In this document: positions 6,016 to 34,768 of the stretch, one piece after another | Layout: every line of letters starts with the position of its first letter | How positions within the stretch are numbered: position 1 is the stretch's first letter | Source of the DNA: Candidatus Terraquivivens tengchongensis | Lineage (GTDB): Archaea; Thermoproteota; Nitrososphaeria_A; Caldarchaeales; Wolframiiraptoraceae | Reading direction: 5' to 3' | Length of the DNA: 61,891 bases | NCBI GenBank assembly: GCA_023261845.1 | Contig: JALNJZ010000008.1 | Location: forward strand, 1-61,891 | Position numbers and translations under genes: made by a program | Notes under the pieces: model-generated | Databases searched by the model: none | Told to the model about the DNA's origin: nothing | The model's input: only the letters and a program-made list of their open reading frames with translations

Positions 6016-8307
6016 CTAATCGCTTAATCTGGCTGCGATCACTGCTTGACCGAGTGAGAGCCCACCATCACCGGGCGGGATCCTTGTATTTGTGTAGAAT
6101 CTAAAACCTTTTGCTTCGATCGTTCGTCGTATTGTTGTCGTTATTTGTTCGTTGTATGCCACACCACCCGTGAAAACAATGTTTTTTACACATTCGCTGG
6201 TTGCTATTTCTAAGGCAAGTTCGGCCAAGCCTAGTGCCAAATAATTCTGGGCTGAGAAGGCAAGGTCTCTCACCTTTTTTGAATTTAAACCCTTCATTGC
6301 CATTTCTGTAATCGATTCTACCATGTACCTTGTGTTCAAGACCCTGCCTTTTATTTCCGGCTTCAGTCCTAAGATGTCTGAGCCACCTATCGCTACAGAT
6401 TCGAGCTTCATAGCAGGCTCACCTTCGTAGGTTCTCTCATAGCATATGCCCAATATGGCTGCAACACTATCCAAAACCCTACCAGCGCTTGAAGTCTTTA
6501 TGTTTTTTCCATTCTTAATCTGTTTTAATACTATTTCTGCTTCGTCTCTACCTCTTGGAAGCTTATCAGTATTCGAAAATAACCACTCCTCACATATATC
6601 TGATCCGAACAATATACCCGCGGCCATCCTTGCTGGATACTTTGCGGCTAGGTCGCCGCCTGGCATTGGGTGATTTTCCAAATGTCCCAAGCGACGGAAA
6701 ACATTACCATCGCATAAAAGAACCTCACCACCCCACGCCAAACCATCGCTACCGTACCCGAATCCGTCGCATGCTATTCCTATGACTTCCTCCAACCCAT
6801 GCTCTACCATTACCGAGGCAACATGCGCATGGTGATGTTGGACAGGTATTGTTGGTATCTTAAACTTTTCAGCCAATTCTTTTGCTAGCCTAGTTGTCTG
6901 GAATCCTGGATGTAGATCATGAGCTATTACCTCTGGTTGTGCTCTGATAAGCTTAGCTAAATAATGTACTGCAGACTTCAAAAATTCGTAAGTTTCTACA
7001 CATTCTACGTCGCCAATATGCTGCGTTAAGAACGCCTTATCACCCATGAGGATACAAGCGGTAACGTTGAGCTCACCTCCCAAAGCAAAGACGTTTTTAC
7101 TGTACTCATGCGATAAGACGATTGGCTCTGGTGCGTAACCCCTCGAACGGCGTATAAAGCTGACAGACCCGTCAACTAACCTTACAACAGAATCGTCACA
7201 TCGGTTAACGATTTCTCGGTTGTGGAGAAGCATATAATCAACATCCTTTCCGATTCTTGAATAGGCCTCTTGATTTTGTATAACTATCGGCTCACCTGAC
7301 GGGTTTGCGCTTGTCATCACGTATGCCGGCTCCTTACTGTTAAGCAGTAGAAGAAGATGTAGGCCAGTATACGGTAGCATTACACCTACATTGTGAAGGC
7401 CTGGCGCTATCTCCTCAGATAGATAGTAGTCCTCACTTTTGCGTAATAAAACAATAGGGCGTGCTGGGGATGTGAGCAATGCTTCCTCTTGGTTACTAAC
7501 GATTGCAAAAGACTTTACGGTCTTCAAATCTTTAGCCATTATTGCAAAAGGCTTTTGTCGCCTATGCTTAACTTTCCTAAGCCTTATTATAGGTTCTGAA
7601 ATTGTTGTTGCCGTTGCTACGTGGAAGCCACCATTCCCCTTTATTGCCACTATGTATCCTTCATCGATAAGCTTAGCAGCTTCCTTTATCGGTTCTTTAC
7701 ATGCGATCAATTCTCCATTGTTGGTTGTTAAATAAACCATCGGACCGCACTTAGGGCATGCAATCGTTTGGGCGTGAAACCTCCTGTTCAAAGGATCATT
7801 ATATTCAGAACTACACAATTCGCACATCGGAAAATCTCTCATGGATGTATTTTGCCTGTCGTACGGTGTGTCTAATATGGCAGTGAATCTTGGTCCACAA
7901 TTCGTGCATGTTATAAAGAAGTAGCCGAATCTTCTATCAGTAGGATTTAGGAGCTCTTTAACACAATCATCACATATCGCCACATCCGCTGGTATCACAG
8001 AGCCCGTGACTAGGCTTTGCTCCGAACTCTTTAGTATCTCAAAACTCATGAACTCGTTCTTTGACTCTGAATAGCTTATATCGATCTTGGTTATATGAGC
8101 TAAAGGCGGCTTCTCCTTAACTAGAGCGTCCAAGAAAGATTTTATATCCAGTTCGGGTCCTTCTACGATTATCCTAACGGATGCGTCCTTTAGATTCTGG
8201 ACAAATCCTTTAAGCCCCCTGCTAACTGCGATTCTATAAACGAATGGTCTAAAGCCCACTCCTTGAACTATGCCTGAAACCCTGACTTCAGCCCTAACTT
8301 TTTCCAT
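6016..8307 (-). CDS. hypF: Carbamoyltransferase HypF
   Basis: Acylphosphatase GIVQGVGFRPF, two Zn fingers, HDLHP, QHHHAH, PPGDGGLSLGQ. Confidence 0.97.
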   Translation of the reverse strand: MEKVRAEVRVSGIVQGVGFRPFVYRIAVSRGLKGFVQNLKDASVRIIVEGPELDIKSFLDALVKEKPPLAHITKIDISYSESKNEFMSFEILKSSEQSLVTGSVIPADVAICDDCVKELLNPTDRRFGYFFITCTNCGPRFTAILDTPYDRQNTSMRDFPMCELCSSEYNDPLNRRFHAQTIACPKCGPMVYLTTNNGELIACKEPIKEAAKLIDEGYIVAIKGNGGFHVATATTISEPIIRLRKVKHRRQKPFAIMAKDLKTVKSFAIVSNQEEALLTSPARPIVLLRKSEDYYLSEEIAPGLHNVGVMLPYTGLHLLLLLNSKEPAYVMTSANPSGEPIVIQNQEAYSRIGKDVDYMLLHNREIVNRCDDSVVRLVDGSVSFIRRSRGYAPEPIVLSHEYSKNVFALGGELNVTACILMGDKAFLTQHIGDVECVETYEFLKSAVHYLAKLIRAQPEVIAHDLHPGFQTTRLAKELAEKFKIPTIPVQHHHAHVASVMVEHGLEEVIGIACDGFGYGSDGLAWGGEVLLCDGNVFRRLGHLENHPMPGGDLAAKYPARMAAGILFGSDICEEWLFSNTDKLPRGRDEAEIVLKQIKNGKNIKTSSAGRVLDSVAAILGICYERTYEGEPAMKLESVAIGGSDILGLKPEIKGRVLNTRYMVESITEMAMKGLNSKKVRDLAFSAQNYLALGLAELALEIATSECVKNIVFTGGVAYNEQITTTIRRTIEAKGFRFYTNTRIPPGDGGLSLGQAVIAARLSD

Positions 8308-8442
8308 CTACCATATTAGATCTCTTCAATCCATAACATATACTAGACGTCATTTAATGTCAAGTGATAATTAAAGTATTTACTTCATTAGTTTTTATAA
8401 GACGTTTATTACAAATATACTTGAAAGTTAAATTTAAGGAAT

Positions 8443-8973
8443 TTGCTTTTTTATTTAATTGGAGGTTGGATCTTTACGTTCAAATTCTCCTTGGAAGATG
8501 CGGTAAAAGAGCTCAGGCCGCAATTATGTTATCAGTGTATGAAGTGCTCCAGTGGATGTACGGCCGCAAAGGTCGTTAACAACTACAGACCCCATGAGAT
8601 AGTCGCCCTAGTGAAAGCAGGCTATTCTGACGAACTTATAAATAGCGACGTGATATGGGCATGCTCAGTTTGCTTAAAGTGCGTAGAATACTGTCCCCAG
8701 AGGGTCTCACCGTTTGAAGTGGTGATGGCACTCAGGAACGAGTCTATCGCAAGGGGGAGGGTGCCTCCGAAATCTTTCGTGGAAATGGCAAAATCCGTAT
8801 TGAAGGTTGGCCACATCCAAGAACCCATGTACATAATGTCAAAGGATTTTGAGGAAGTTTCTAGGATGGAGCTGGGCTTACCAGAGATGCCAAAACCGAA
8901 AGATTTTGAAAAATTTAAACAACACGTCTTGTTGGTAGGTTTTGAGAAATTAAAGGAGGTTATCCGAGTATGA
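8443..8973 (+). CDS. hdrC: Heterodisulfide reductase subunit C (start uncertain)
   Basis: Two CxxCxxCxxxC motifs (CYQCMKCSSGC; CSVCLKCVEYCP); directly upstream of hdrB. Confidence 0.9.
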   Translation: MLFYLIGGWIFTFKFSLEDAVKELRPQLCYQCMKCSSGCTAAKVVNNYRPHEIVALVKAGYSDELINSDVIWACSVCLKCVEYCPQRVSPFEVVMALRNESIARGRVPPKSFVEMAKSVLKVGHIQEPMYIMSKDFEEVSRMELGLPEMPKPKDFEKFKQHVLLVGFEKLKEVIRV

Positions 8974-9845
8974 AGTTCTTACTTTATTTGGGTTGTACTA
9001 CTGCGACGAAGCAATACGGTTATGAACTCTCGCTGAGGGCCACGTTACCATTGTTGGGCGTAGAGCTAGAGCATCCTAAAGACATGAACTGTTGTGGGGT
9101 TCCGATGAAGGGTATAAGCAAGTTTTATCCGTATTATGCCTGTGCAAGGATTATGGCACTAGCTGAGTCGCAGGGTTTGGATATCATTGCGCCATGTAAT
9201 GGCTGTCACCTAAATTTAACGGAGACAATCTACAAGTTGAAGTTGAATCCGTTGCTTATGAGCGCAGTGAATGAACTTCTTAAAGAGGAGGGGCTGAAGT
9301 ATACGGGTAAAGCGATGGTGTATCATCCTGTAGAAATTTTACATGACAAGATAGGCATTGAAAAGATAACATCATCAATTAAGAGAAAGTTGCCAGAAAT
9401 ACCAGTTTCTTCTCATCCTGGTTGTCACCTAATCAGACCAACAGAATTCCCGAGACCAGAGACAAGAGATGGTCCACTCAAGCTGGATAGATTGATCGAA
9501 GCCATAGGTCTTAAGGCGAGGGATTATCCTGAAAAGTACGAATGTTGTGGAGCGGCTATACTTCCCTACTCGCCGGAGGCGGCGATAAAGACTGCAGCCT
9601 TCAGAATAAAAAGAGCATTGGCTGTAGGTTCGAAAGCAATAACCAGCTTATGTCCTTACTGTATAGATATGCTCGATGGAAAGCAAGATGCAGCTAAAAC
9701 AATAACCGGTGACCAAAACATTTCAATTCCAGCGCTTTATTATACGCAATTACTGGGCCTTGCATTAGGTTTGGATGAAAAAGAGCTTGGGATGAGCCTA
9801 AACATGAGTCCGGTCGAGGTTTTACTCGAGGAGGTGAAAGTCTGA
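8970..9845 (+). CDS. hdrB: Heterodisulfide reductase subunit B
   Basis: Two CCG domains: YLGC/NCCG/PCNGC and HPGCH/ECCG/LCPYC; YYTQLLGLALG C-terminus. Confidence 0.93.
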   Translation: MKFLLYLGCTTATKQYGYELSLRATLPLLGVELEHPKDMNCCGVPMKGISKFYPYYACARIMALAESQGLDIIAPCNGCHLNLTETIYKLKLNPLLMSAVNELLKEEGLKYTGKAMVYHPVEILHDKIGIEKITSSIKRKLPEIPVSSHPGCHLIRPTEFPRPETRDGPLKLDRLIEAIGLKARDYPEKYECCGAAILPYSPEAAIKTAAFRIKRALAVGSKAITSLCPYCIDMLDGKQDAAKTITGDQNISIPALYYTQLLGLALGLDEKELGMSLNMSPVEVLLEEVKV

Positions 9846-11824
9846 TGGTCGAGGATGAAGAAGTTAGAATAGGCGTTTATATATGTCATTGTGGTTTAAA
9901 CATAGCATCTGTAGTTGACGTAAAGAAAGCGGCTGAAGAAGTATCAAAAGTACCGAATGTTGTGGTTGCGAAGGACTACCAATTCATGTGCTCTCAACCA
10001 GGCCAGAATATAATAATTGAGGACATAAAGCAACATCGCCTTAACAGGGTCGTCGTGGCTGCCTGCTCACCTAGAATGCACGAACCAACGTTCCAGAAGG
10101 CTGTCGAAAGGGGCGGTCTTAACCCATACCTTTTCGAGATGGCTAATATAAGGGAGCATTGTTCTTGGGTTCACGAAAAGGAAAAAGTTGCTGCGACAGA
10201 AAAGGCCATCAAATTAGTTAAGGCTGCTATCGCTAAAGCTAGGCTGTTAAAGCCGTTAAAGAGGGAGAAAGTAAATGTGATACCAAGGGCGCTCGTCATA
10301 GGTGGTGGGATAGCCGGCATCAGAGCTTCGCTCGACATAGCAAATGCTGGCTTCGAGGTTCACTTAGTTGAGACGAGACCCAGCATAGGAGGGAACATGG
10401 CAAGGTTAGATAAGACTTTTCCAACACTTGACTGTTCTCAGTGCATACTAACACCTTTGATGGTAGAAGTAAGCAGACACCCAAACGTCACTCTTCACAC
10501 CTATACGGACGTTGTGAACATTGATGGTTCTGTCGGGAACTTTAAAGTTAAACTATTGAAGAAACCAAGGTACGTTGACGAGTCGAAATGTACTGGTTGT
10601 GGCACATGTATCACAAAATGTCCATGGACCGCGCCGAGTGAATTTGAGTTAGGACTTGGGAAGAGAAAGGCAATATATTTCGAATTCCCACAGGCCGTCC
10701 CGCTTATTCCTGTGATCGACCCTGAGCACTGTATGTATTTCCAGAAGGGAACATGTAGAGCTTGTGAGAAATTTTGTCCTACTAAGGCTATAGACTTCAA
10801 TCAAAAACCGGAAGAGATAGAGTTGGAAGTTGGAGCAATAATCTTAGCTACTGGATATAGTTTGTACGATGTCGCAAAAGCCATGTCAGAATACGGTTAT
10901 CGCAAGTATAAGGACGTAATCACCGGATTAGAATTAGAGAGGCTCGTCTCGGCCACAGGACCAACAAAAGGGCACATAGTCAGGCCAAGTGATGGGAAGG
11001 AGCCGAAAAAGGTTGCAATAATTCTTTGTGTTGGTTCGAGGGACGAAAAGCACCTCAGGTTCTGCTGCAGGTTTGGATGTGTAGCAGGAATAAAGCATGC
11101 CTATTACATAGTGAGTCACATACCGGACGCGGAAGTGTACATTTGTTACAGGGACATCAGGACCTTTGGGAAAGGTTACGAAGAGTTCTATGAGAGAATC
11201 AGGAATTACGAAAACATCAAGTTCATAAGAGGTAGCCCAATGGAGATATTACAAGATGCTGATGGAAGTCTCTACTTTGACGTGTTCGATGCAAACACAA
11301 ACAGAATCGTAACACTCAGGCCAGATCTCGTCGTCCTTGAGACCGGCATAGTTCCTCACCCGACGTTTAAAGAAGTGGCCAAGATACTTAAGTGTGCGGT
11401 AGGTCCAGACGGTTTTGCGTTAGAATTACATCCAAAGCTTAGGCCTACAGAGACATCGGTTGACGGGGTATTTTTGGCCGGTGCAGTGCAAGGACCAAAG
11501 GACATACCCGACACTGTAGCTCAGGCAGGTGCTGCGGCATCTTCAGTCATAGCATTGATGTCGAAGGGCTACGTAGAAACAATACCTTACGTCTCCTCGA
11601 TTAACGAGGACTTATGTAGCGGTTGTGGTATATGCCAGCCCTTATGTGCTTACGACGCAATATCTTTAGTTAAAAAAGAAGATGGGAAGCAAGTTGCAAA
11701 AGTTGACATAGGCAAGTGCAAGGGGTGTGGAGTGTGTGCAGCCGCATGTCCATCCGGAGCCGCCCAACAGCTTGGATTTAACGACGAGCAGATTTTGGCG
11801 ATGGTAAGGACACTTACGAGGTGA
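9845..11824 (+). CDS. hdrA: Heterodisulfide reductase subunit A (FAD, Fe-S)
   Basis: [34 protein letters not shown] motif, inserted and C-terminal ferredoxin domains; 659 aa. Confidence 0.97.
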
Positions 11825-11829
11825 TTAAA

Positions 11830-12270
11830 ATGGTAGAGAATTTTGAACCGAATATAGTGGTTTTTGCATGCAACTGGTGCTCTTATGCTGGGATGGACCT
11901 AGCCGGAACTAGTCGAATACAATACCCCCATAACCTCAAAGTGATCAGAGTTATGTGTTCCGGCAGAATCAACCCAGCGTACATACTTGAGGCTTTCGCG
12001 AACGGTGCCGACGGTGTCCTTGTGACTGGTTGTCATCCTGGCGATTGCCACTATATATCTGGAAATTATAAAACCAGAAAGAGAATCATTCTACTGGAGA
12101 GGTTGCTTGAGCAGTTTGGTATTGAAAAAGAGAGGTTAAGGTTAGAATGGGTATCCGCATCAGAAGGGGAAAAGTTCGCCAACATCGCGAAAGAATTTGT
12201 CGAGCAAATAAGGAAGCTGGGGCCAAATCATATCGCAAAGGAATTAAGGAAGGAGGTGGCAGTAGTTTGA
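11830..12270 (+). CDS. mvhD: Methyl viologen-reducing hydrogenase delta subunit
   Basis: [31 protein letters not shown]; ATG 11830 follows GAGGTGA SD. Confidence 0.95.
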
Positions 12271-13244
12271 ATAAACCAAGGCTGGCCATAATACCTGGGG
12301 CAAACTGTGCCGGCTGCGACTATTCGCTCTTAGACTTAGGTGAAAAAGTCATAGAAGTTTTGATGGCTGTAGACATAGCTTACTGGCCGACCGCTGCCGA
12401 TCTAAAGTTGGAGGACCTAGAGAAGCTACCAGATGGTTCTATAGACCTTGTGCTCTTTGAGGGTGCCGTGAACAATGACGAGACGGAAGAAATGGCTAAA
12501 CTTGCAAGGAGGAAGGCAAAAAATCTCATAGCATTTGGAGCTTGTGCTTGTTTTGGTGGCATACCCGGTCTTGCAAACGTTGCCTCAAAGGACGGTATCC
12601 TCCGAAAAGCATACATAAAGAGTTTGAGCACAGTCAACCAGCAAGGAACGATACCTTGTAAGCTGACAAGGCTTGATGGCATTGAGCTAACAATACCAGA
12701 ATTTCTTGAGACTGTTAAGTCGCTTGATCAAGTAGTTAATGTGGATTATTACCTACCAGGCTGCCCACCACCACTCAAATTGGTAGCCGAGGCATTAACT
12801 GCCGCACTATCTGGAAAGCTACCACCAAAGGGCACGGTGTTCGGTTCGATGAAGTCCGTCTGTGACGATTGCAAGCGTATCCGTGAAGACAAGAAGATCA
12901 TGGAGATAAAACGCTACCACCAGCTCATCCCAGACCCTGAGAGGTGTCTTTTCGAGCAAGGCATAATATGTATGGGTCCTGCAACCAGAGGCGGTTGCGA
13001 TGCAGTGTGTCCTACGGCGAACGTTCCCTGTAGAGGTTGTATGGGACCGACACCAGGATCTCAAGATCAAGGTGCTAGGATGTTATCTGCCCTATCTTCT
13101 GTAATAGGGCTAGAGGTTGAAACGGGCGTTAGTGATGAAGAGGTTAGAAAGCTCATATTGCAGGTAAAGGATCCGTTAGGAACGTTTTACAGGTACAGTT
13201 TACCAAAATCAATAATGCGTAGGGTGTGGGGTGTTAGAGAATGA
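12267..13244 (+). CDS. mvhG: Group 3c [NiFe]-hydrogenase small subunit
   Basis: [32 protein letters not shown]; TTG at 12267 after GGAGGTG overlaps the mvhD stop. Confidence 0.94.
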
Positions 13245-14701
13245 AAAAGGTTGTAACGATTCAGCCCATAACTAGGCTTGAGGGGCACGGTAAGATTTCG
13301 ATATTTTTAGACGAAACTGGCAATGTTAAGGATGCTTACTACCAAGTAGTTGAGTTCAGGGGCTTCGAAAGGTTCTGCATAGGAAGATCTGTCGAGGAAA
13401 TGCCCATAATAACGCCAAGGATCTGCGGTGTTTGTCCATGGGCACACCACATGGCATCGGCGAAGGCCGTAGATGCTGTTTATGGGGCTGAGTTGCCAAA
13501 GACTGCCAAGAAAATACGGGAAATGGCCTACAATATATTCTACATACATGACCATTCAGCAGTATTCTATGCACTTTCTGCACCGGACTTCGTTGTTGGA
13601 CCCGATGCACCTAGAGCTGAAAGAAACATCCTCGGCCTTATCGGAAAGATTGGTCTAGAAACTGGGAAGAAAGTCATAAACGCTAGAATGGTGGCTACGA
13701 AGCTTTTGGAAAAACTTGCTGGGAGGGCAATAATACCGACTTGCGCTGTTCCAGGCGGTGTATCCAAACCTTTGACGGAAGACGACAGAAAAGAAATAGA
13801 AGAAGGTGCGAAGAAGCTTGTGGATTTCAGTCAGTTCACGCTGAAGATATTTGAAGATGTTGTTCTAAAGAATCAAAAATACCTTGACTTAATTATGGGC
13901 GACGTGTATAAGCATGAGACTTATTATATGGGTTTGGTCGACGAGAAGGGGCTGGTTAACTACTATGACGGAAAGGTCAGAGTTGTTGACCCGAAGGGAA
14001 GAATATACACAGAATTTCATCCAAAAGATTATCTAAATCATATAGGTGAACATGTGGAGACATGGACTTATCTTAAGTTCCCATACTTGAAGAGTTTAGG
14101 CTGGAAGGGGATAGTTGATGGTGAAACATCCGGCGTATATAGAGTAGGACCTCTTGGTAGACTCAACGTAGCTGACGGATTTGCAACACCGCTTGCGCAG
14201 GAAGCTTATGAAAAATTTAAAGAAATTTTGGGTAAGCCTGCTCATGCAACACTTGGATACCATTGGGCGAGGGTTATAGAAATACTTAATGCCGCTGAGA
14301 GGGTACTCGAGTTGAGCAAGGATCCAGACATAACCGGAAAGGACTTTAGAGTTCCTTTGACAAATACTCCAAGCGAAGGGGTCGGTATTGTTGAAGCACC
14401 AAGGGGCACACTTATACATCACTACAAGACGGATCAAAACGGCATATTGACCGACGTTAACCTGATAGTTGCAACGACACACAACAACGCTGGCATATGC
14501 ATGTCCGTAAAGAAGGCCTCGCAACAGCTTATAAGAGGTGGCAACGTAAACGATGGACTACTCAACATGATAGAGATGGCATTCAGAGCTTACGACCCGT
14601 GCTTAGCCTGTGGAACGCATGCGTTACCAGGTCAGATGCCGCTTGACGTATGTATATATGATGCAAACGGAAGACTCGTGGTCGAGATAAAGCGTCCTTG
14701 A
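13241..14701 (+). CDS. mvhA: Group 3c [NiFe]-hydrogenase large subunit
   Basis: TRLEGH, L1 RICGVC, L2 DPCLACGTH plus cleavable C-terminal tail. Confidence 0.96.
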   Translation: MKKVVTIQPITRLEGHGKISIFLDETGNVKDAYYQVVEFRGFERFCIGRSVEEMPIITPRICGVCPWAHHMASAKAVDAVYGAELPKTAKKIREMAYNIFYIHDHSAVFYALSAPDFVVGPDAPRAERNILGLIGKIGLETGKKVINARMVATKLLEKLAGRAIIPTCAVPGGVSKPLTEDDRKEIEEGAKKLVDFSQFTLKIFEDVVLKNQKYLDLIMGDVYKHETYYMGLVDEKGLVNYYDGKVRVVDPKGRIYTEFHPKDYLNHIGEHVETWTYLKFPYLKSLGWKGIVDGETSGVYRVGPLGRLNVADGFATPLAQEAYEKFKEILGKPAHATLGYHWARVIEILNAAERVLELSKDPDITGKDFRVPLTNTPSEGVGIVEAPRGTLIHHYKTDQNGILTDVNLIVATTHNNAGICMSVKKASQQLIRGGNVNDGLLNMIEMAFRAYDPCLACGTHALPGQMPLDVCIYDANGRLVVEIKRP

Positions 14702-15165: not shown

Positions 15166-15189
15166 TTTTAACACCTGCAAAAATAACCA

Positions 15190-24632: not shown

Positions 24633-24718
24633 AACTACCACCTCCATCTAGTCAAACCTAATTGCAAATAAGCATTACCCATTTTTTAAAAACTCTTTAA
24701 AATAATTAGTTTGTGTCT

Positions 24719-25174: not shown

Positions 25175-25209
25175 AAGGTTTTATGTTGTTATACCTTACT
25201 TAAAGATGT

Positions 25210-26283: not shown

Positions 26284-26446
26284 ACCAAGTGACGTATTCC
26301 GTCATCTCAATATATACCTTTACCGATAGCGCACAGACCCACATATACAAAATTAGGCGATAAGAAGTTTTTAAAGACCTGGTCACCTGTATGCTACGGA
26401 ATAAAATAGTGGTGCTAGTTATTGTTAACGTAGAGGTCGATGTCCT

Positions 26447-27493: not shown

Positions 27494-27494
27494 A

Positions 27495-28565
27495 CTATTT
27501 ATCAAACACATTAAGACGCGATAGTTCTTTCTTGACGAAGGCTTCCCTTTTCTCGTCATCAAGGTCGTTTACGAACATATGCATCTTGAGCAGGAACTCC
27601 CTAAGCCCCTCTATCCTCGATTCATAAATTGGCGTCAGGTTTGTGTTCTCTTCTTGCGATATCTTAATGGACTCTGCAGCGGCCGTCCCACTCTCGATCG
27701 CAAGCCTTATGCCTTCTCCTGAGAAAGGGTTACAAAATCCTCCAGCATCACCAACGAGCACGACATTCTCGAGCCCTGTTGATGATATGGCAAACGGTAT
27801 GTATGCAGTTTCTCTCGTATTCATCCTTACAGGTTTAAATGAAAACTCATCTCTTAGCAGATTCAAAAGCTTCTTCATGTAAGACTGAAAGTCAATAGTT
27901 CTGCTTTCGAAGCCAAAACCTACAAGAAATTTTCCGTCCTTGGGAATTACGTAACCGTAGGTCGGCACGATTTTGCCATTGAGGATTACATAGAAATTAT
28001 CTTCGAAATCGCCTTCTCCATCCCAAACTTCTTGCACGACAGCGAGTGTTCTAGGCTTATAGTTCGGAAATAAACAAGAACGAACCTTTGAAAAAACACC
28101 ATCAGCACCGACTACATAAGTGGCTTCGAAGACCTCCATAATGCCATTTATCCTTACTTTTAGCATGTTATACTTCCCTAGCTTCAGCTCGATAAACTCT
28201 GCACGGTACAAAAGATCGACATTGTGCGTCCTAGCTTCTTCCCTTAACCATTCATCAAAGGCAACCCTACGCAAATTGATTAATGAATAATTTTTCATCG
28301 CGCCGCCGTTGCGCTTCCCACTAGGCGGTACATAAAAAAGCCCTAATCTTTCCGGGACAGATAACACTGACTGGGGAATGCATAATCCTAACTCGAGTTC
28401 CAGTAAATCTTTTGTTACGGTCGGTGTAACACCGCCGCAGACCTTTTTTCTGTAGCGTGTTGATTTTTCCAACAGCGCTGTTTTAAATCCCATCTTAGCG
28501 CATTTTATCGCACACGCAACACCCGCAGGACCGCCACCGACCACTATCACATCAAACCTGCGCAC
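27495..28565 (-). CDS. FAD-dependent oxidoreductase, geranylgeranyl-reductase family; LipT-like by context
   Basis: VVGGGPAG, KVCGG, GADG, GDAGGFCNPFSGEGI; overlaps the end of the lipoate ligase gene. Confidence 0.8.
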   Translation of the reverse strand: MRRFDVIVVGGGPAGVACAIKCAKMGFKTALLEKSTRYRKKVCGGVTPTVTKDLLELELGLCIPQSVLSVPERLGLFYVPPSGKRNGGAMKNYSLINLRRVAFDEWLREEARTHNVDLLYRAEFIELKLGKYNMLKVRINGIMEVFEATYVVGADGVFSKVRSCLFPNYKPRTLAVVQEVWDGEGDFEDNFYVILNGKIVPTYGYVIPKDGKFLVGFGFESRTIDFQSYMKKLLNLLRDEFSFKPVRMNTRETAYIPFAISSTGLENVVLVGDAGGFCNPFSGEGIRLAIESGTAAAESIKISQEENTNLTPIYESRIEGLREFLLKMHMFVNDLDDEKREAFVKKELSRLNVFDK

Positions 28566-30142
28566 TTTTTATCACCCATTTTAGAGGATGCCGCCAAGAC
28601 TTTCTTAAGAAGTGTTAGGTTAATCTTGGTCTGGGCCTCGAAGCCACCCCTATATGCCTCTTCTGCCTTGCCCAAATCATAGCAGGTTTTGTCCTCGATA
28701 TCTATTATTATCCCTGGCACACCAACATCTCTCATCTCATCCCGATGTTTTACATAAAATGCTTCACAACAACACCCAACAAAGCCCTTTGCACCTTTGG
28801 CCTTCATCATCCTCAAAACCTCTATCAGGTGTTCAAAGTTACAGATCGTTACGGGTTTTATACCAAATTCTTCCGCTAAGCGATATGCCTCGCCAACTGT
28901 GCATTTACCACATTTTGTACACTCATCCGTTCTTCTATACATGCATGATACCATCTTAGAACAGTATGGTAGCAGCATATAGTCGAAACCGTTCTTTAAC
29001 GTTGACTTGATGCCGTTTGTTATTGGATATATGTTGTTGACCTCATTATTATCTATACCGTAAGATTCAAGCTCAGTTTTTTCTAAGGCCTCTAGTATGA
29101 GTTCTACAACATCATCTTCGGTTATGCTGAGTGCCCTAACATGTTTTTCATTAAATATTCTGTGAACTATTTCCCTTATTTTATCAGCATCTGCTGGGAT
29201 GAACTTAAGGGCAGCCTCCAAGTCCATGATTGCTCTTTGTGGGAATATGAAGAAGTCCCCTGTTATCAGCACACTTTTTATAATGTTTGCATCCTTGTCC
29301 ACGCTCAACGATACGTGGATGACGCCACCCGGCTTCTTATCAACTGCATGTACCATAGTAGAACCTTTTAGTGAGCGCCTATCCATGAATATCCACTCTT
29401 CGGAACCGAACCACGATAGCTTTTTCTCAAAAAGCTCTAACTCGTGATTGGTAAGTTCACCGAGTTTAAGTTCTATGTTAAGTGTCTCCTCGAAGCCTCT
29501 GATTAATGCGCTCTTGATTTCCTCATAATCTGGGATATAGCCCAGCTCCCACTTAAGACATGTTACTCTCTTCTTCACAGATTCCAGCTCTTTATCCTTG
29601 AGCTTTATTATTGGAATCTTTAACACCTTTATCATCGTCTCGACGTCAAAGTTTACGAGGAGCGTGCCTTGGAAGAGAAAGGCATCCTCTCTTTCAACAC
29701 CACCCGTGCCCGATATCTTCCTACCATCTATCTCTATGTCGTTCCTAGGTCGGAAGCAGGCGTTTAAACCAAACTCTTTTAGAGCATTTACAACGCATTC
29801 GCACATCGTCTTAAAGATCCATTCTAAAGAGTAGTTCGTGCATACTGAGTGCTTTGATGCTATTACCTCCCACCCAATGGTAGAGCTGTCAAAGTAGATA
29901 GCGCCGCCCCCTGTTAACCTCCTGTTAACGTCTATACCTTTTTCCTTTGCGTATTCCAATCGAACCTCTTGCTCAACGTCTTGGTGATACCCAACGAGGG
30001 CTGCAGGTGGACTGAACCTCAAAAACCTTACAGTATCTGGTACCAGGTTCCTTGCTCTACATTCTAATATCACGTTGTCGAGTGTCATGTTTTCAGACGC
30101 AGGTCTAAGGCCTGTATCAATAAGTCTCCACTGACGCAACAC
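28547..30142 (-). CDS. lplA: Lipoate:protein ligase (catalytic + LplB-like domain) fused to a Cys-rich DUF116-like domain
   Basis: RRLTGGGAIY, NDIEIDGRKISG, QGTLL, ITGDFF; tail LLPYC...CTKCGKC...GCCC. Confidence 0.88.
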   Translation of the reverse strand: MLRQWRLIDTGLRPASENMTLDNVILECRARNLVPDTVRFLRFSPPAALVGYHQDVEQEVRLEYAKEKGIDVNRRLTGGGAIYFDSSTIGWEVIASKHSVCTNYSLEWIFKTMCECVVNALKEFGLNACFRPRNDIEIDGRKISGTGGVEREDAFLFQGTLLVNFDVETMIKVLKIPIIKLKDKELESVKKRVTCLKWELGYIPDYEEIKSALIRGFEETLNIELKLGELTNHELELFEKKLSWFGSEEWIFMDRRSLKGSTMVHAVDKKPGGVIHVSLSVDKDANIIKSVLITGDFFIFPQRAIMDLEAALKFIPADADKIREIVHRIFNEKHVRALSITEDDVVELILEALEKTELESYGIDNNEVNNIYPITNGIKSTLKNGFDYMLLPYCSKMVSCMYRRTDECTKCGKCTVGEAYRLAEEFGIKPVTICNFEHLIEVLRMMKAKGAKGFVGCCCEAFYVKHRDEMRDVGVPGIIIDIEDKTCYDLGKAEEAYRGGFEAQTKINLTLLKKVLAASSKMGDKKCAGLM

Positions 30143-30143: not shown

Positions 30144-31133
30144 TTACACCTTTTGAGCGACGTCCTGCCATATTAATGAACAGCAACTGTCATGAATGAC
30201 GACATTTAGACCCAACTTTCTTGCAAACTTGTAAGCTTCTTCACTAGGATAAGCAATACCGTTGACTCCTACCTTTAACGCCAAAACATCTATCGCAGAC
30301 CTTAGCGCACCCCTTGCTCTGGCACACCCTAGCGTTATAGGAGTATTTGGCATCAAAAGCCTAGCAAAAAGAATTACACGTATGATGTCTACAGGGCTAG
30401 GAGGAGTGCTTTCCATAGGTGTGTTGGCAAGGGGCATTAAGGCGACAACCACGAGAGTATCCGGCCTATACTTAGAAACAATCTCTACAGCTTTCTTCTC
30501 GCCCAAAATCTGGCCATAATGCATACCAACGACTATATGTGGCACCATGGACACATGATGTTTCTTTAAATTATCTAGAGACCTTTCGTAGTCCGCCACT
30601 GTTTTATTTAACTTCAGCACATCTCTTATGGTTTCGTCGGAACCGACAATATCCATCATGGCAGCATCAATACCAGCATAGGCCAGACCTTCGGCGAGCT
30701 CTTCGTCAACTAAACCCGTGTGCACTACTACGTGAAGCCCAAGCTCATCTTTTATCCTCTTCAGCACAGGTATAAACTTCTTTATCGGAACGCGCCCATC
30801 CTCAAGGCTTCCACCCGTCACAAGGCAACCAACACCGCCAGCCTCCTTTACCCTAAGGCAGACATCGAACAGGGCTTCGGGTGTCGTCGCATGAAGCATA
30901 CTCTTTAGGAGCGTACCTTTGCAGTGCTCGCACTGTAGCCTGCAGACCGTACCGGTTATCGATATTCCGGGAAAGCGAAGGACGTTAGCGGGCGTGTAAA
31001 ACGAGGTTTCAACATGCACCATACCTGGAAAGTAGAAATGAACTTCATCTGGAAAGTTTGCGCGCGTTATCTTCCATGCTTTTTCTATTAGCGGCTTTAG
31101 TTCATCAAATTTTAGGCTGAAGCAGGAACCCAT
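30144..31133 (-). CDS. lipS1: Radical SAM lipoyl synthase component LipS1
   Basis: CRLQCEHC plus GCAR and C-terminal CC motifs characteristic of LipS1; adjacent to lipoate ligase. Confidence 0.8.
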   Translation of the reverse strand: MGSCFSLKFDELKPLIEKAWKITRANFPDEVHFYFPGMVHVETSFYTPANVLRFPGISITGTVCRLQCEHCKGTLLKSMLHATTPEALFDVCLRVKEAGGVGCLVTGGSLEDGRVPIKKFIPVLKRIKDELGLHVVVHTGLVDEELAEGLAYAGIDAAMMDIVGSDETIRDVLKLNKTVADYERSLDNLKKHHVSMVPHIVVGMHYGQILGEKKAVEIVSKYRPDTLVVVALMPLANTPMESTPPSPVDIIRVILFARLLMPNTPITLGCARARGALRSAIDVLALKVGVNGIAYPSEEAYKFARKLGLNVVIHDSCCSLIWQDVAQKV

Positions 31134-31162: not shown

Positions 31163-32278
31163 CTAGATGTGTTCAGCATAACCGAATAAACCTTCCAGTC
31201 CATCTACCCATACCTTGGCTGGAATGTTGGAGTAATCTTGTAACTGTCTTCTTATCAGTTTAATATCATCTTTTGTTGGTACGAATGGATAGTTACGCAT
31301 CTCACCGATTAGTGCGTGATACGGCGTGTAATCCGAGAAGGGTCTGTTGCATGCGTTATCCCTCTTCTTGCTGGCACATCCTGAGGTCATAAACGGAAGC
31401 CCGCTTTCTATCACCTCGTCAAGCACATCTTTTTCCAGACCAAAATCTATCAATCTTCCAAAGTTATCAAAACGCATATTGTCAACGCTCGTTAGGCCCT
31501 TGTTGATTAGGTAACGAGCGAGCTGTATGCGCCTATATTGTCCAATTGGGGGCTGAGTATGTTCTTCCATAATTGAGCCCTCCTCCGGGAAGAATGAGAA
31601 TAGGTGTGTTAATGCGCCGATATCGTAAGCCGTTTGTATACATCTGACCATCTCCTCCTCAGTCTCACCAAGGCCGACTATCAAGTGAACGCCGACATTA
31701 TACCTGCCAAATACATCTACAGCCTCTTCAACAGTATTCCAGTATTTCTCCCAACGATGGGGGCCTCCGACCCCTTTGCCCCTGAGTTTATCAAAAAGCT
31801 CAGGTGTCGCGGCATCTATTGCTATGCCTACTTTGTCAGCCCCTGCCCTCTTCAGTTCCTCGAGCCAGCTACGGTCTATTATCGTCGGCGTTATTAGCCC
31901 GGATATTGAGTCTGTCTTTTTGCGTAACCTCCTAACGATTGTTAGACAGTCCTCCGGCGCCCTACGGTTCGTCACCATCGAGACACAAACCCTTTCAACG
32001 TACGGACATGAGTCCATTCTTTCAAGGACTTCATTTAGGCTAACCGTCGGCCAATCGACACGTATGAAGCTGTAGTCGGTCCAGATTTTCTCTAACTTTC
32101 TGCTTCTAGAAAGTCCGCAGTAAGCACACCTTCCTACACAACCATTACTATACGTTAGGAGGAGGTTAACACAATAAAGGGTCGCACCCCTAAAGAACGC
32201 ACCGTTTACCAATCCCAATGTCATGGCTGCTGCAAGGCTTATTCTTACATACTCTGGCGATTCTTGTTGTATAGTCAT
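31163..32278 (-). CDS. lipS2: Radical SAM lipoyl synthase component LipS2
   Basis: CVGRCAYC plus TSGC...CNRP motif characteristic of LipS2. Confidence 0.8.
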   Translation of the reverse strand: MTIQQESPEYVRISLAAAMTLGLVNGAFFRGATLYCVNLLLTYSNGCVGRCAYCGLSRSRKLEKIWTDYSFIRVDWPTVSLNEVLERMDSCPYVERVCVSMVTNRRAPEDCLTIVRRLRKKTDSISGLITPTIIDRSWLEELKRAGADKVGIAIDAATPELFDKLRGKGVGGPHRWEKYWNTVEEAVDVFGRYNVGVHLIVGLGETEEEMVRCIQTAYDIGALTHLFSFFPEEGSIMEEHTQPPIGQYRRIQLARYLINKGLTSVDNMRFDNFGRLIDFGLEKDVLDEVIESGLPFMTSGCASKKRDNACNRPFSDYTPYHALIGEMRNYPFVPTKDDIKLIRRQLQDYSNIPAKVWVDGLEGLFGYAEHI

Positions 32279-32320: not shown

Positions 32321-33406
32321 TCACGACGGTACCATATGAGTTGCCCAGATCCTACATGTACCTTCAATAGAGACCATGCATGGTCCTATGGGCTTATTCG
32401 GTTTGCATACTTTCATGTAAAGTGGACATTGTGTAGGCTTGATTCTTCCGAGCATTATCTCGGCACATCTGCACCCTGCATGCATCTCATTGGCATAGTC
32501 CACGTCCTTCAGGCCGTACTTGTATTTTGCATCGTAATCCTTAAACTCCTCCTTCAGGATGAAGCCGCTGCTTTCTATTGTACCTATACCCCTCCAATGG
32601 GCGTCGGTTAGTTTAAAGACGTGGTTAATCGTTTGCATTGCCCTAACATTGCCTTCCCACGTGACGGACCTCGAATACTGGTTTAGCACTTCTGCCCTAC
32701 CCTCTGATATCTGCTTAACCAACATGAAGATAGACATTAAAACATCCACAGGCTCGAAACCGGAGGCAACAACAGGTATTCCGTACTCTTTAGCTAGAGG
32801 TTCGTAAGCCTTTAGGCCGCTTATCGTCGTTGCATGGCCAGGCGCTATTACGCCATCCATCTCCAGCTTACCGCGTGAGTAAAGAGCGATAACTGCAGGA
32901 GGTACGTACCTGTGCGAGCTGAGTATCGAGAAATTTTTCGGCGGGGTACGAAGTATATGTAGCGCAGTAGCCGGAGCGGTGGTCTCAAACCCTACCGCAA
33001 AGAAGACGACTTCCCTGTTCTGATCCGATTCCGCCATCCTTAAGGCATCGAGTATGCTATAAACGATCTTCACATCGCCGCCTTCTGACCTTACCGCCTC
33101 TAAGGAGTGCTTGACACCGATCGACCTTGATACGTCTCCGAATACAGCAACAGTCTTACCTTCAAGTGCGAGTTCGGCGGCTTGGTCTATGTCCAATGCA
33201 GGAGTTATGCATACAGGACAGCCAGGCCCGGCGATAAGTTCTATGTTATCTGGGAGGAGCGCGCGCAACCCATAATGGACTATAGTCCATTCATGCGTAC
33301 CACATACATGACATATTTTAATCGGTTTCTTCAGATGTATGTTCTTTATTTTGCGTACGAGTGCCTCCACTAATTCTCTATTCTTGAATTCCTTCAGAAA
33401 GCTCAA
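32321..33406 (-). CDS. hypD: Hydrogenase maturation protein HypD
   Basis: HVCGTH, GPGCPVC, GFETT, APGH, CMVSIEGTC. Confidence 0.97.
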   Translation of the reverse strand: MSFLKEFKNRELVEALVRKIKNIHLKKPIKICHVCGTHEWTIVHYGLRALLPDNIELIAGPGCPVCITPALDIDQAAELALEGKTVAVFGDVSRSIGVKHSLEAVRSEGGDVKIVYSILDALRMAESDQNREVVFFAVGFETTAPATALHILRTPPKNFSILSSHRYVPPAVIALYSRGKLEMDGVIAPGHATTISGLKAYEPLAKEYGIPVVASGFEPVDVLMSIFMLVKQISEGRAEVLNQYSRSVTWEGNVRAMQTINHVFKLTDAHWRGIGTIESSGFILKEEFKDYDAKYKYGLKDVDYANEMHAGCRCAEIMLGRIKPTQCPLYMKVCKPNKPIGPCMVSIEGTCRIWATHMVPS

Positions 33407-33430
33407 ATGGTATCACCGGAGATGCAGTAA

Positions 33431-33646
33431 TTATTCGCTGAGCATCTCTGATAACAGCTCTATTGTCTTGAGCGCCTCGTCCTCGTTAAGCACCTGTATG
33501 GCGTAGCCAGCATGAACAAGCACGTACTGTCCTATAGAGACGTCTACGAGTGAAACATCCACCTCTCTGAGCGTATTATCACCAAAATCTACTTTGGCCA
33601 TATTACCGACTTTTTCGATAACCTTTGCGGGCACGGCTAAGCACAT
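33431..33646 (-). CDS. hypC: Hydrogenase chaperone HypC
   Basis: MCLAVPA N-terminus (ATG 33646), YVLVHAGYA. Confidence 0.95.
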   Translation of the reverse strand: MCLAVPAKVIEKVGNMAKVDFGDNTLREVDVSLVDVSIGQYVLVHAGYAIQVLNEDEALKTIELLSEMLSE

Positions 33647-33692
33647 CTTATATAAGATTCGCGTCGTTCCAGCTAATAAACTCTCGTTAGAC

Positions 33693-34064
33693 CTAAAGCT
33701 CAAGCCTAACCCTTTTTATGATGCAGCCCTTCCCCTCTAAGACTTCTACAGGACTTCCGCATACAGGGCACAAGAATAAAGGTGTTGAGACGTGATAAGA
33801 TGCATCATCGACGTAGTCTGGCTTACCATCGAACCCGCAGACCTCGCACCTAACGTGAGCATCCATAATGTTAATGATTAGACGGGAATTTTCTAGGATT
33901 GTGCCCTTAGAAAGTACGTTGTATGCAAAGCGCATCTGTTCTGGATTAAGGAAGGATAGCTGGCCGACGTCTAACTCAATTTCTAAAACCCTTTTCGCGT
34001 CCCTCTTCCTAGCTTCTTCAATTACTTTCTCTACGAGCTGTGACATGATGGAGAACTCGTGCAT
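33693..34064 (-). CDS. hypA: Nickel chaperone HypA
   Basis: MHE N-terminus and two CxxC motifs. Confidence 0.95.
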   Translation of the reverse strand: MHEFSIMSQLVEKVIEEARKRDAKRVLEIELDVGQLSFLNPEQMRFAYNVLSKGTILENSRLIINIMDAHVRCEVCGFDGKPDYVDDASYHVSTPLFLCPVCGSPVEVLEGKGCIIKRVRLEL

Positions 34065-34066
34065 GT

Positions 34067-34768
34067 CTACAACAAACCCAGTACCTTGGCTACTTTCTCT
34101 ATGCCCTCACCAGTTTTGCAACTCGTCCTAATGACCACAATATCTGGAGAAACTTTTTTTATCTTGGCTTCCAACCCATCGACATCAACATCCATAGTTC
34201 CTGCTAGATCTATCTTGTTAATAACTGCCACATCCGCTTCCATGAATATGTAAGGGTGTTTTAACGGTGTGTAAGGACCCTCGGTCACACTTATGACGAC
34301 CACTCTGCTGTCCGTTCCAAGCGGAAATTCGGCCGGGCATATCAAATTCCCAACATTCTCTATAAAAAGCACATCAATGTCATTCAGGTCTATTTTGCTT
34401 AGGGCCTTTCTCACGAGGTTAGCATCAAGATGACATTCCTTGCCAGTGTTTATCTGTAACGTCTTAGCGCCAGACCTCTTCAACCTTTCGGCGTCTATTG
34501 TCGTCGTAACATCGCCACCAAATACAGCAATTCTATATTTGTCCTTTAACAGTCCTATTAGCCTCTCAATCAACGTTGTCTTCCCCGAACCCACGGAGCC
34601 CATAACGTCTATGGCTCTTATGCGGTGCTTTTCTAGGAGTTGTTTGTTTTCTTCAGCTATTTTTCTGTTCGCCTCAAGCAAGTCTTCTTCGAGTTCTATG
34701 TCGAAAACCTCGCCCTTATCAGGCACTATTACCTCTATTTCGTCTGGCAAAGCTGGGTGCTCCCTCAA
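34067..34768 (-). CDS. hypB: GTPase HypB
   Basis: GSVGSGKTT, ECHLDA, ENVGNLICP, NKID. Confidence 0.96.
   Translation of the reverse strand: MREHPALPDEIEVIVPDKGEVFDIELEEDLLEANRKIAEENKQLLEKHRIRAIDVMGSVGSGKTTLIERLIGLLKDKYRIAVFGGDVTTTIDAERLKRSGAKTLQINTGKECHLDANLVRKALSKIDLNDIDVLFIENVGNLICPAEFPLGTDSRVVVISVTEGPYTPLKHPYIFMEADVAVINKIDLAGTMDVDVDGLEAKIKKVSPDIVVIRTSCKTGEGIEKVAKVLGLL

Follow-up and report, generated by a model that had tools for sequence, protein, structure and literature searches.

A redox gene island with Mvh-Hdr, lipoylation and HdrD-type genes around a putative lipoyl carrier protein in Candidatus Terraquivivens tengchongensis

Homologues of the HdrABC-MvhADG complex occur widely among bacteria and archaea in which neither coenzyme M (CoM) nor coenzyme B (CoB) is synthesised, which raises the question of the disulfide that they use. 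The same question is raised by the anaerobic hot-spring archaeon Candidatus Terraquivivens tengchongensis, in which a complete hdr-mvh gene set shares one gene island (positions 6016-34768 of contig JALNJZ010000008.1) with three genes for GcvH-like proteins, a set of lipoate assembly genes, an OsmC-family gene and three HdrD-type modules. The window analysed here is the entire 61.9-kb contig (C14) of a 1.22-Mb archaeal genome with a completeness of 99.4%, and its genes were called from a listing of open reading frames (ORFs) and from Pfam and NCBIfam profile searches of the window proteins. Other genomes, contigs and loci are cited by G, C and L numbers, respectively.

A first-pass annotation had proposed that, in an H2-driven Mvh-Hdr circuit, lipoamide on GcvH-like carriers replaces CoM-S-S-CoB or DsrC. 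The gene classes that it named in 6016-34768 were all found at the same coordinates. The proposal itself survives in part: the genome holds no classical partner and the linkage is conserved, but two of the supposed carriers lack the lipoyl-lysine and an explanation based on OsmC competes with it. The reading preferred here, with a probability of about 0.5, is that the remaining protein, GcvH3, is a lipoyl dithiol/disulfide carrier similar to the lipoate-binding protein LbpA, and that it serves the island enzymes with CCG domains together with OsmC. That the region 6016-34768 is a conserved redox island around this one dedicated lipoyl protein has similar odds.

Lipoyl-lysine and lipoylation genes

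The three GcvH-like proteins, their orthologues and ordinary GcvH proteins were compared at the lipoyl-lysine column (alignment A1). GcvH3 and the ordinary GcvH proteins have K in this column, GcvH1 and its four orthologues have R, and GcvH2 has M, with M or T in its orthologues from four related genomes. GcvH1 has a K directly after this R, but one orthologue has R there too, so that this K is not conserved. Because the column holds R in GcvH1 and M in GcvH2, lipoylation at the canonical site is, as judged by the alignment, possible for only GcvH3 among the three island proteins, and the three lipoylated carriers assumed earlier are reduced to one. All 16 GcvH3-type rows of alignment A3 have the motif E[TS]GKWVGP in common, with K kept throughout. 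GcvH3 is also the best-conserved island protein within the genus, at 88-94% identity, above its neighbours.

The lysine-less copies are conserved partners of GlcD-HdrD3 or, in some lineages, of Memb2-HdrD2 instead. Every version of the island has R, M or T at the lysine site of the GcvH copy located 5' of GlcD, and in other lineages R was found at this site in eight cases. The island also suggests that GcvH-fold proteins without the lysine, associated with HdrD enzymes, form a class that has so far gone unrecognised. It may be guessed, with low confidence, that GcvH1 and GcvH2 have no redox function and are docking or regulatory subunits within the HdrD modules.

When the whole genome was searched for GDC-P, GCV_T, the E2 domain (PF00198, 2-oxoacid_dh), DsrC, MCR_alpha, ComA and NIR_SIR, none of these families gave a match. 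The absence of gcvP, gcvT, E2, mcr and dsrC genes from the window, on which the first-pass annotation had leaned, therefore holds for the genome as well, where ComA and DsrAB-type genes were likewise not found. The exception is the L protein, also reported as missing from the window: an lpd gene is present on contig C2, in a string with lipA and an LplA/LipM-type catalytic-domain gene (G000:C2:238083-241067; L048:16083-19067), and its product scores 518 bits against TIGR01350 (cut-off 408.8). A fourth, canonical GcvH, 88% identical to the copies of the same-genus genomes G002 and G003, is encoded on C2 at a distance of 50 kb from the lipA-lpd string (L049:8250-8687), beside two ADP-forming acyl-CoA synthetase genes. 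In total, the genome encodes two lipoylation routes, two lipoylatable H-type proteins and one E3, and the enzymes that normally use lipoyl H-type proteins are absent from it.

These results bear on a possible role of the GcvH-like proteins in glycine cleavage or in the metabolism of 2-oxoacids. Their Pfam GCV_H matches, and the score of GcvH3 over the NCBIfam GcvH subfamily cut-off, would be consistent with such a role. However, neither P, T nor E2 was found in the genome, GDC-P is present in 0/7 genomes of the genus as compared with 6/6 of a sister genus, and G041, a genome from outside the genus that has gcvP, still carries extra island copies. Given the presence of gcvP in G041, its island GcvH is not the carrier of glycine cleavage but an additional one. 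As P, T and E2 were not found, this reading was rejected, and it is regarded as hardly credible.

Three of the four GCV_H matches of the genome and four of its nine CCG-domain proteins (16 domain matches in the genome) fall within the island, which is 2.4% of the genome. The clustering of these genes is therefore not random. The features are collected in Table 1.

Table 1. Genes of the island at positions 6016-34768, with the profile matches or other data that identify them.
Feature	Position	Strand	Basis
hypF, [NiFe]-hydrogenase maturation carbamoyltransferase	6016..8307	-	Pfam HypF_C_2 226 bits, zf-HYPF, Acylphosphatase
hdrC-like two-[4Fe-4S] subunit	8443..8973	+	Fer4_8, Fer4_9; 4-base overlap with downstream hdrB
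hdrB, two CCG domains (disulfide-reducing site)	8970..9845	+	PF02754, 2 stretches, 71.4 bits
hdrA, long FAD/Fe-S bifurcating-type subunit, 659 aa	9845..11824	+	Pyr_redox_2 and four Fer4 stretches
mvhD	11821..12270	+	PF02662 FlpD 195.5 bits
mvhG, hydrogenase small subunit	12147..13244	+	PF01058 88 bits
mvhA, [NiFe] hydrogenase large subunit	13241..14701	+	PF00374 120.9 bits
hycI-type maturation protease	14698..15165	+	PF01750 47.9 bits
NarI1, NarI/DsrM/HdrE-like membrane anchor	15498..16082	+	PF02665 46.8 bits
HdrD1, two [4Fe-4S] sites and two CCG domains	16079..17296	+	CCG 106.2 bits, 2 stretches
GcvH1, GcvH fold without lipoyl-lysine (EHGR)	17438..17806	+	PF01597 84.2 bits; alignment A1
Memb2, polytopic membrane protein	17842..18687	+	H98 and H260 invariant in 7 orthologues
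HdrD2	18691..19926	+	CCG 104 bits, 2 stretches
AbrB/MazE-fold and PhoU-domain protein, putative regulator	19929..21020	-	PhoU 30.2 bits, MazE_antitoxin 24.7 bits
GcvH2, GcvH fold without lipoyl-lysine (EHGM), 16 bases 5' of glcD	21151..21552	+	PF01597 80.6 bits; alignment A1
GlcD-like FAD-linked 2-hydroxyacid dehydrogenase subunit	21568..22995	+	FAD_binding_4 131.6 bits; TIGR00387 156 (cut-off 568)
HdrD3, GlcF/TfrB-like CCG subunit	22997..24166	+	CCG 107.5 bits; TfrB model 188.6 (cut-off 385)
GcvH3, 147 aa, lipoylatable (IETGKWVGPLK)	24204..24647	-	PF01597 126.7 bits; NF002270 130.9 (cut-off 117)
OsmC-family protein, both conserved Cys, 5' of gcvH3 on the same strand	24719..25174	-	PF02566 54.4 bits
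Second AbrB/PhoU-like putative regulator	25210..26283	-	MazE_antitoxin 24.7 bits; PhoU 18.3 bits, weak
hypE	26447..27493	+	AIRS_C 105.3 bits, AIRS 68.5 bits
lipT-like FAD oxidoreductase, geranylgeranyl-reductase family	27495..28565	-	TIGR02032 161.3 bits (over cut-off 158.8)
Lipoate:protein ligase Lpl(AB) with C-terminal DUF116	28547..30142	-	LplA-B_cat 166.3, Lip_prot_lig_C 28.9, DUF116 46.2 bits
lipS1	30144..31133	-	NF053742 235.3 bits (over cut-off 230)
lipS2	31163..32278	-	NF053743 223.7 bits (under cut-off 270, yet best model by far)
hypD, hypC, hypA, hypB	32321..34768	-	HypD 456.6, HypC 84.6, HypA 93.8, cobW/HypB 87.1 bits

The genes hdrC-hdrB-hdrA-mvhD-mvhG-mvhA-hycI form a translationally coupled operon, with overlaps of 1-4 bases between the reading frames. 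Solved methanogen HdrB structures match HdrB along its entire length (9sfi_C, 7e-49; 5odc_B, 1e-46), and its score against TIGR03288 is 179.3 bits, under the cut-off of 345. HdrA reaches 863.9 bits with NF040770 (HdrA2; cut-off 1100) and MvhA 424.7 bits with the VhuA model (cut-off 800), both under the thresholds. The match of MvhG to the VhuG model (231.3 bits, under the cut-off of 450) starts at residue 42, and the true start of mvhG is probably later than 12147.

On the opposite strand, hypB-hypA-hypC-hypD-lipS2-lipS1-lpl-lipT make up a single string between 34768 and 27495, in which no gap exceeds 43 bases. The genes for hydrogenase maturation and those for lipoate assembly are thus possibly co-transcribed in the genus; in G041, the lip genes come after GlcD-HdrD3 instead. 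The DUF116 domain of Lpl(AB) occupies residues 384-489, and tblastn matches to Lpl(AB), which may or may not extend into the DUF116 part, have 54-58% identity in G041, G042, L151 and L155.

Among the HdrD modules, the best NCBIfam models for HdrD1 are TfrB (171 bits) and DsrK (118 bits; cut-off 400), both scores being under the cut-offs. Its neighbour NarI1 scores 41.8 bits against the DsrM model, far under the cut-off of 300, and the HmcE and TmcC models also score. For Memb2, neither Pfam nor NCBIfam gave a match at a threshold as loose as E<=1, and its similarity to NarI1 was not significant by BLASTP (E 0.38). An AlphaFold2 model built from seven Memb2 orthologues (mean pLDDT 48.3) was too poor for a fold search, and an Atlas feature match of 0.93 to NarI-like clusters serves as a lead only. 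However, a Memb2-like domain is fused to an HdrD-like part in a 676-aa protein encoded at L153:16172-18199 and L154:16060-18087 (minus strand). This fusion ties the Memb2 family to HdrD, and Memb2 is the probable anchor of HdrD2.

The OsmC protein aligns with 2onf_A (Ta0195) at 1e-14 with both Cys positions retained, and its scores against OsmC/Ohr subfamily models are far under the cut-offs. Homologues of the second AbrB/PhoU-like gene, which lies upstream of osmC, are found inside the island in L080, L151 and L153-L156.

Two further features of the window lie outside the island. A gene for a radical SAM protein with an HMPTM zinc-ribbon (methanopterin-type pterin methyltransferase family; 34929-36515, plus strand) adjoins hypB. 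Further downstream, 42346-49438 includes a DNA methylase gene (43440-44639), two ORFs without Pfam matches (42346-43443 and 46328-47602) and an ORF (48476-49438) with a weak phage-capsid match (E 6e-5, under cut-off), and this segment may be a mobile-element remnant.

Linkage of the carrier and Hdr genes in other lineages

The island is syntenic in three genomes of the same genus (G001, G005 and G006), and MvhA is 93% identical in a same-genus relative with the same island. As the flanks are equally syntenic, synteny within the genus says little. The linkage of mvh/hdr with gcvH and lip genes, put forward for testing across archaea in the first-pass annotation, does extend beyond the genus, with the gene order rearranged, but most Mvh-Hdr loci are without GcvH.

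The complete island was found in a different order in G041 (L080 and L147) and G042 (L070 and L148), with MvhA 69-70% identical to that of the window, and in the same form in L151. The order in G041 and G042 is hyp, hdrCBA-mvhDGA-Memb2-HdrD2, GcvH3, OsmC, HdrD1-AbrB, followed by lysine-less GcvH-GlcD-HdrD3-LipS2-LipS1-Lpl-LipT. The motif of the lysine-less copy is EAGRR or ESGRR, and the string GcvH-GlcD-HdrD3-LipS2 of G041 contains a 70-base gap. Parts of the island are also present in G116, G408 and L156, the last having the island set on a 1.68-Mb contig. A GcvH(K)-GlcD-HdrD segment lies upstream of hdrCBA-mvhDGA-hycI in G116, and OsmC and GcvH(K) genes lie beside hdrCBA-mvhDGA in G408.

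A survey of metagenome contigs anchored on GcvH3 returned 570 relatives. Among the best 80 of these, genes for CCG proteins were found at 16/80 loci (11/25 of the loci of at least 12 kb), lipoylation genes at 15/80 and OsmC at 2/80. In L152 and L155, hdrC-hdrB-gcvH3-lipS2(-lipS1-lpl-lipT) lie on one strand, while in L153 and L154 the arrangement is hdrC-hdrB-gcvH3-lpl, beside GlcD-HdrD3 with a lysine-less GcvH. The arrangement NarI-HdrD...gcvH3(-lpl) occurs in L159, L163 and L165, and a lysine-bearing GcvH adjoins GlcD and/or HdrD in L184, L201, L218 and L230.

A different neighbour was seen at 11 of the same 80 loci (L193, L194, L197, L202, L205, L207, L209, L210, L213, L216 and L221), where the GcvH3-type gene is followed by one for a flavoprotein that is 25-29% identical to Lpd. 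The two products may be another lipoyl-protein reductase pair.

From the side of the Hdr enzymes, a survey of 185,579 species genomes anchored on MvhA gave 586 relatives. The best 80, which represent many phyla, were kept, and two of them are from the same genus and 78 from elsewhere. A tree of 44 HdrB rows places the HdrB of the window in an 11-row clade (support 100/99), and for all 11 a GcvH-like gene lies no more than 15 kb away. Among them are HdrBs encoded directly beside gcvH3 and without Mvh. A profile of this clade was then searched against 401 genomes of the phylum, and the 18 best non-genus loci (334-445 bits) were compared with 18 lower-scoring ones, which leave out second matches in genomes already listed (G168:C43, G238:C37 and G248:C6). 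The two top matches, G116 (445 bits) and G408 (443 bits), also the two best non-genus HdrB matches, were the only island-like loci.

Several observations weigh against the carrier reading, in addition to the missing lysines of GcvH1 and GcvH2. Only 3/78 of the non-genus MvhA loci among the best 80 of 586 have a GcvH-like gene, and the third of these, in the Bathyarchaeota genome G043, is a lysine-less fusion located between two mvh-hdr sets. Six of the 11 rows in the HdrB clade came from the GcvH3 search and hence have a GcvH gene by construction. A GcvH-like gene lies near 2/18 of the high-scoring HdrB loci as compared with 3/18 of the lower-scoring ones, and a clade-wide claim that HdrB similarity predicts a neighbouring GcvH was dropped for this reason. 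Loci from the same family (G003, G010, G014, G016 and G018; 14-20 kb each) have the hdr-mvh and hyp genes without lip, gcvH or HdrD genes in 5/5 cases. In genus g5, MvhA is present in 6/6 genomes and an island-type LipS1 in 0/6 at E<=1e-20. Within the genus of the window, G004 is without NarI1-HdrD1-GcvH1-Memb2-HdrD2 and GlcD-HdrD3 but retains mvh-hdr, hyp, lip, GcvH2, GcvH3 and OsmC. Since all three HdrD modules are lost from a genome that keeps mvh-hdr, lip and GcvH3, the modules are dispensable.

The association is therefore strong from the carrier side and weak from the Hdr side. A GcvH3-type protein is usually found near CCG enzymes, and most Hdr complexes use something else. As most Mvh-Hdr loci have no GcvH nearby, the GcvH-linked Mvh-Hdr is a lineage-restricted variant.

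The fusion in G043 (L149:8252-8842) joins a lysine-less GcvH-like domain, with ETWM at the lysine site, to an N-terminus that resembles a ribbon-helix-helix by eye. It occurs in three Bathyarchaeia genomes of one family (G043; also L253 and L257), between or beside mvh-hdr sets and next to an AbrB-like gene. As a GcvH-fold protein, it may sense or regulate at Hdr loci.

The origin of the island also has to be considered. MvhA and HdrA of the island share only 51-59% identity with their counterparts in relatives from the same genus and family, as compared with 86-88% for housekeeping neighbours. For example, MvhA is 59% identical to the window's in G002 and G003, same-genus genomes that are without the island GcvH and LipS1 genes, but 70% identical in G041. 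Judging by these identities, the island mvh-hdr genes look laterally acquired, and co-transfer could therefore explain part of the linkage, a further point on the negative side.

Carried further, this would mean that the hydrogenase with its maturation genes, a lactate/glycolate-type dehydrogenase, DsrMK-like modules and a lipoyl protein are independent modules of a transferable block that have no coupling with each other. Acquisition as a block would explain the low identities of MvhA and HdrA, and modules have been lost piecemeal, not only in G004 but also in G001, where GcvH1 is broken, being split and partly inverted (L034:345-723), and Memb2 is cut to a 158-aa piece (45% identity; L068), which indicates decay of the GcvH1/Memb2 module within the genus. 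Moreover, some CCG families, such as GlcF, GlpC and LutA, work without thiol substrates, and these names occur among the NCBIfam matches of window proteins. However, independent modules would not be expected to recur as the same set with shuffled order in at least five lineages, or in operons as tight as hdrB-gcvH3-lipS2 and GcvH-GlcD-HdrD3-LipS2, and the concentration of 3/4 GcvH-like genes and 4/9 CCG proteins in 2.4% of the genome also argues against it. A complete lack of coupling is thus considered improbable.

Possible electron routes and the OsmC alternative

From gene content and linkage, we infer every electron-transfer step described below as well as the direction of flow. GcvH3 would be lipoylated by the island Lpl(AB)-LipS1/LipS2-LipT, and the canonical GcvH would be served by LipA and LipM. 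The lipoamide/dihydrolipoamide pair on GcvH3 would then be the dithiol/disulfide substrate of the island CCG-domain (noncubane Fe-S) enzymes. Through HdrB of MvhADG-HdrABC the carrier would be in exchange with H2 and ferredoxin, through the two HdrD modules with membrane anchors it would reach a quinone pool, and through GlcD-HdrD3 a 2-hydroxyacid/2-oxoacid pair. The OsmC peroxidase may also be reduced by dihydrolipoyl-GcvH3, and Lpd may equilibrate the carrier with NAD(H).

The most specific version of this scheme is that, in a group of archaea that are not methanogens, lipoamide on a GcvH3/LbpA-type carrier is the physiological 'heterodisulfide' of a bifurcating or confurcating MvhADG-HdrABC, that the carrier is also cycled by the HdrD enzymes and OsmC, and that the lysine-less paralogues became fixed as non-redox HdrD subunits or regulators. 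If true, a lipoyl-protein redox loop would join H2, ferredoxin, NAD(H), quinone, organic acids and peroxide. This version is less likely than not.

The direction of the Mvh-Hdr step is a separate matter. The potentials of H2 and ferredoxin are -0.41 V and about -0.5 V, respectively, and that of CoM-S-S-CoB is about -0.14 V. Lipoamide, for which an E0' of -0.29 V is given, is a much weaker acceptor, and the H2-driven direction assumed in the first-pass annotation is accordingly not secured. By our own estimate from these potentials, bifurcation of electrons from H2 to lipoamide and ferredoxin would have almost no driving force and lie near equilibrium, which adds to the points against the scheme as first drawn. 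Because lipoamide has a low potential and the family is described as H2-producing fermenters, confurcation to H2, or a carrier that is oxidised by quinone, 2-oxoacid or peroxide, is at least as likely. The Mvh-Hdr step may hence run near equilibrium or towards H2 rather than being driven by it.

The main rival to the carrier reading is a purely antioxidant role, in which electrons pass from NADH via Lpd and lipoyl-GcvH3 to OsmC and a hydroperoxide. LipS1/S2 would merely mature the carrier, and Mvh-Hdr and the HdrD enzymes would use other thiol/disulfides, being neighbours through co-transfer or shared regulation. The arrangement of the genes is in keeping with this, as osmC and gcvH3 are co-directional, 72 bases apart and apparently in one operon, and OsmC retains both catalytic-type cysteines. 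All parts of an OsmC/Ohr lipoyl-peroxidase are encoded, namely a two-Cys OsmC, a lipoylatable protein and Lpd, the peroxidase activity being putative. The presence of a true Lpd where P, T and E2 were not found would be explained without any involvement of Hdr. There are also published precedents: Ohr/OsmC enzymes are described as lipoyl-dependent peroxidases, OsmC of the Trichomonas hydrogenosome is reported to detoxify peroxide together with the H and L proteins of a glycine decarboxylase complex that is incomplete, being without P/T, and in Hyphomicrobium a GcvH-like protein encoded next to OsmC has been proposed as the electron donor of OsmC. An OsmC-family gene recurs beside or near GcvH3 in the Terraquivivens relatives and in G041, G042, L151, L156 and G408, which counts for the carrier reading as well. 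Finally, in 4/4 genomes examined of the sister family f3, a gene for a membrane protein with a thioredoxin fold (AhpC-TSA/Redoxin) comes after that of the GcvH3 homologue, and Hdr genes are not in the vicinity.

This role alone does not account for the wider distribution of the carrier. In the GcvH3 survey, OsmC was the much rarer neighbour as compared with CCG proteins (2/80 and 16/80, respectively), and the hdrC-hdrB-gcvH3-lip operons of L152 and L155 are without OsmC. OsmC is also poorly conserved between versions of the island, at 28-32% identity as compared with 61-78% for GcvH3. It would also leave unexplained why GcvH copies without the lysine are associated with GlcD-HdrD3 and Memb2-HdrD2. 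An antioxidant role as the sole function of GcvH3 is therefore thought unlikely, though it is a serious competitor. It is compatible with the carrier reading, and the two do not exclude each other.

With regard to expression, metatranscriptome contigs cover 29/30 bins of 8001-28000, and 26/33 of these contigs are at least 99% alike, in a library that may contain DNA. In another RNA run, 11 raw reads fell on hdrA/mvhD, gcvH3 and the AbrB-like gene, in an orientation that fits sense transcripts provided that the library was stranded in the usual way, and two further runs (X2 and X3) gave 0 reads. Together, these data are a weak sign that the island is expressed.

Comparison with known systems

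No description of this island was found in the literature searched; supplementary tables of PMC10332631 and PMC9246946 might list LipS1/S2 or Hdr of the lineage. The main text of the paper that names the genus mentions no Hdr, lipoate or glycine cleavage genes. The host family is described as anaerobic, ferredoxin-reducing, H2-producing fermenters.

In methanogens, the hdrA, hdrB, hdrC, mvhD, mvhG and mvhA genes specify MvhADG-HdrABC, and all six are present and adjacent in the island, with hycI and hyp genes. The island proteins differ in that the scores against all equivalog models (HdrB, HdrA, VhuG and VhuA) are under the cut-offs. As neither McrA nor ComA was found in the genome, CoM-S-S-CoB is unavailable as a substrate.

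The HdrD modules are comparable to TfrAB, DsrMK-DsrC and HdrDE. The best-scoring models for HdrD1-3 are those of TfrB and DsrK, all far under the cut-offs, and the architecture corresponds to that of these systems, in which a CCG protein passes electrons between a thiol/disulfide and a flavoprotein or a membrane anchor (here NarI1 with HdrD1, Memb2 with HdrD2). Unlike DsrMK-DsrC and HdrDE, they belong to a genome in which DsrC, DsrAB-type and CoM (ComA) genes were not found.

The Trichomonas OsmC/H/L system resembles the present one, as it belongs to an anaerobe with H and L proteins and no P/T, and here the OsmC gene adjoins the H-protein gene. However, Hdr and hydrogenase genes and a dedicated LipS1/S2 pathway do not form part of that system as it is described.

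The closest design is that of the sHdr-LbpA system of Hyphomicrobium, Aquificae and Sulfolobaceae, in which Hdr-like proteins, a GcvH-related lipoate-binding protein and sLpl-LipS1/S2-LipT are reported to be encoded together. LbpA is described as genetically essential, with a dedicated lipoylation pathway beside the canonical route in the same genome, and in the working model two electrons reduce lipoamide on LbpA before E3 passes them to NAD+. The island has in common with it a lysine-bearing GcvH-like protein near hdr genes (GcvH3 only, as GcvH1 and GcvH2 fail in this respect), dedicated Lpl-LipS1-LipS2-LipT genes and a second lipoylation route (lipA-lpd-lipM) elsewhere in the genome.

This shared design could suggest that the island encodes a sulfur-oxidising sHdr-LbpA system of the known type. 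However, sHdr is described as having a short HdrA, two HdrB and two HdrC, whereas the island has a long HdrA in an operon with MvhDGA, one HdrB and one HdrC, as well as three HdrD-type modules, a GlcD-like dehydrogenase, OsmC and lysine-less GcvH paralogues. The host family is reported to be anaerobic and fermentative. DsrE, TusA and rhodanese, the sulfur transferases said to accompany sHdr, were not found in the Pfam scan of the window proteins. TusA and DsrE matches are located on other contigs (C12 and C5) with no visible tie to the island. The TusA/DsrE pair on C12 was considered as an Hdr locus and discarded, as its neighbours are Lrp/AsnC-domain genes and a truncated flavoprotein gene; a CCG protein encoded 7 kb away is a fused GlcD-FeS-CCG dehydrogenase. 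As the subunit set differs and sulfur transferases are missing from the window, a known-type sHdr system was rejected and is very improbable.

A GcvH protein as the source of the Hdr disulfide has already been suggested in print, for the Culexarchaeia (bioRxiv 10.1101/2022.04.06.487207). These non-methanogenic archaea are described as being without full CoM/CoB synthesis and as having gcvH among hdrB and hydrogenase genes, and the authors propose GcvH as a possible bearer of the disulfide on which HdrB or a bifurcating Hdr would act, while calling the disulfide of Hdr without CoM/CoB an open question. Their hydrogenase differs from that of the island in that it belongs to the membrane-bound group 4 and has links with SdhA and CdhA (Ehe/HdrBC/GcvH), and the part of that report drawn on here mentions no LipS1/S2, HdrD modules, OsmC or lysine-less copies. 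The island adds to this suggestion a clonable candidate pair, namely a 147-aa lipoyl protein with four maturation genes beside the reductase, and as homologous operons put hdrB and the carrier side by side, the question is directly testable. On the basis of comparative genomics, the island is best described as a form of the known partnership between Hdr-like enzymes and a lipoate-binding protein. If the carrier reading is true, this Hdr-lipoate partnership, genetically established only for aerobic/lithotrophic sulfur oxidation, extends to anaerobic hydrogen and fermentation metabolism.

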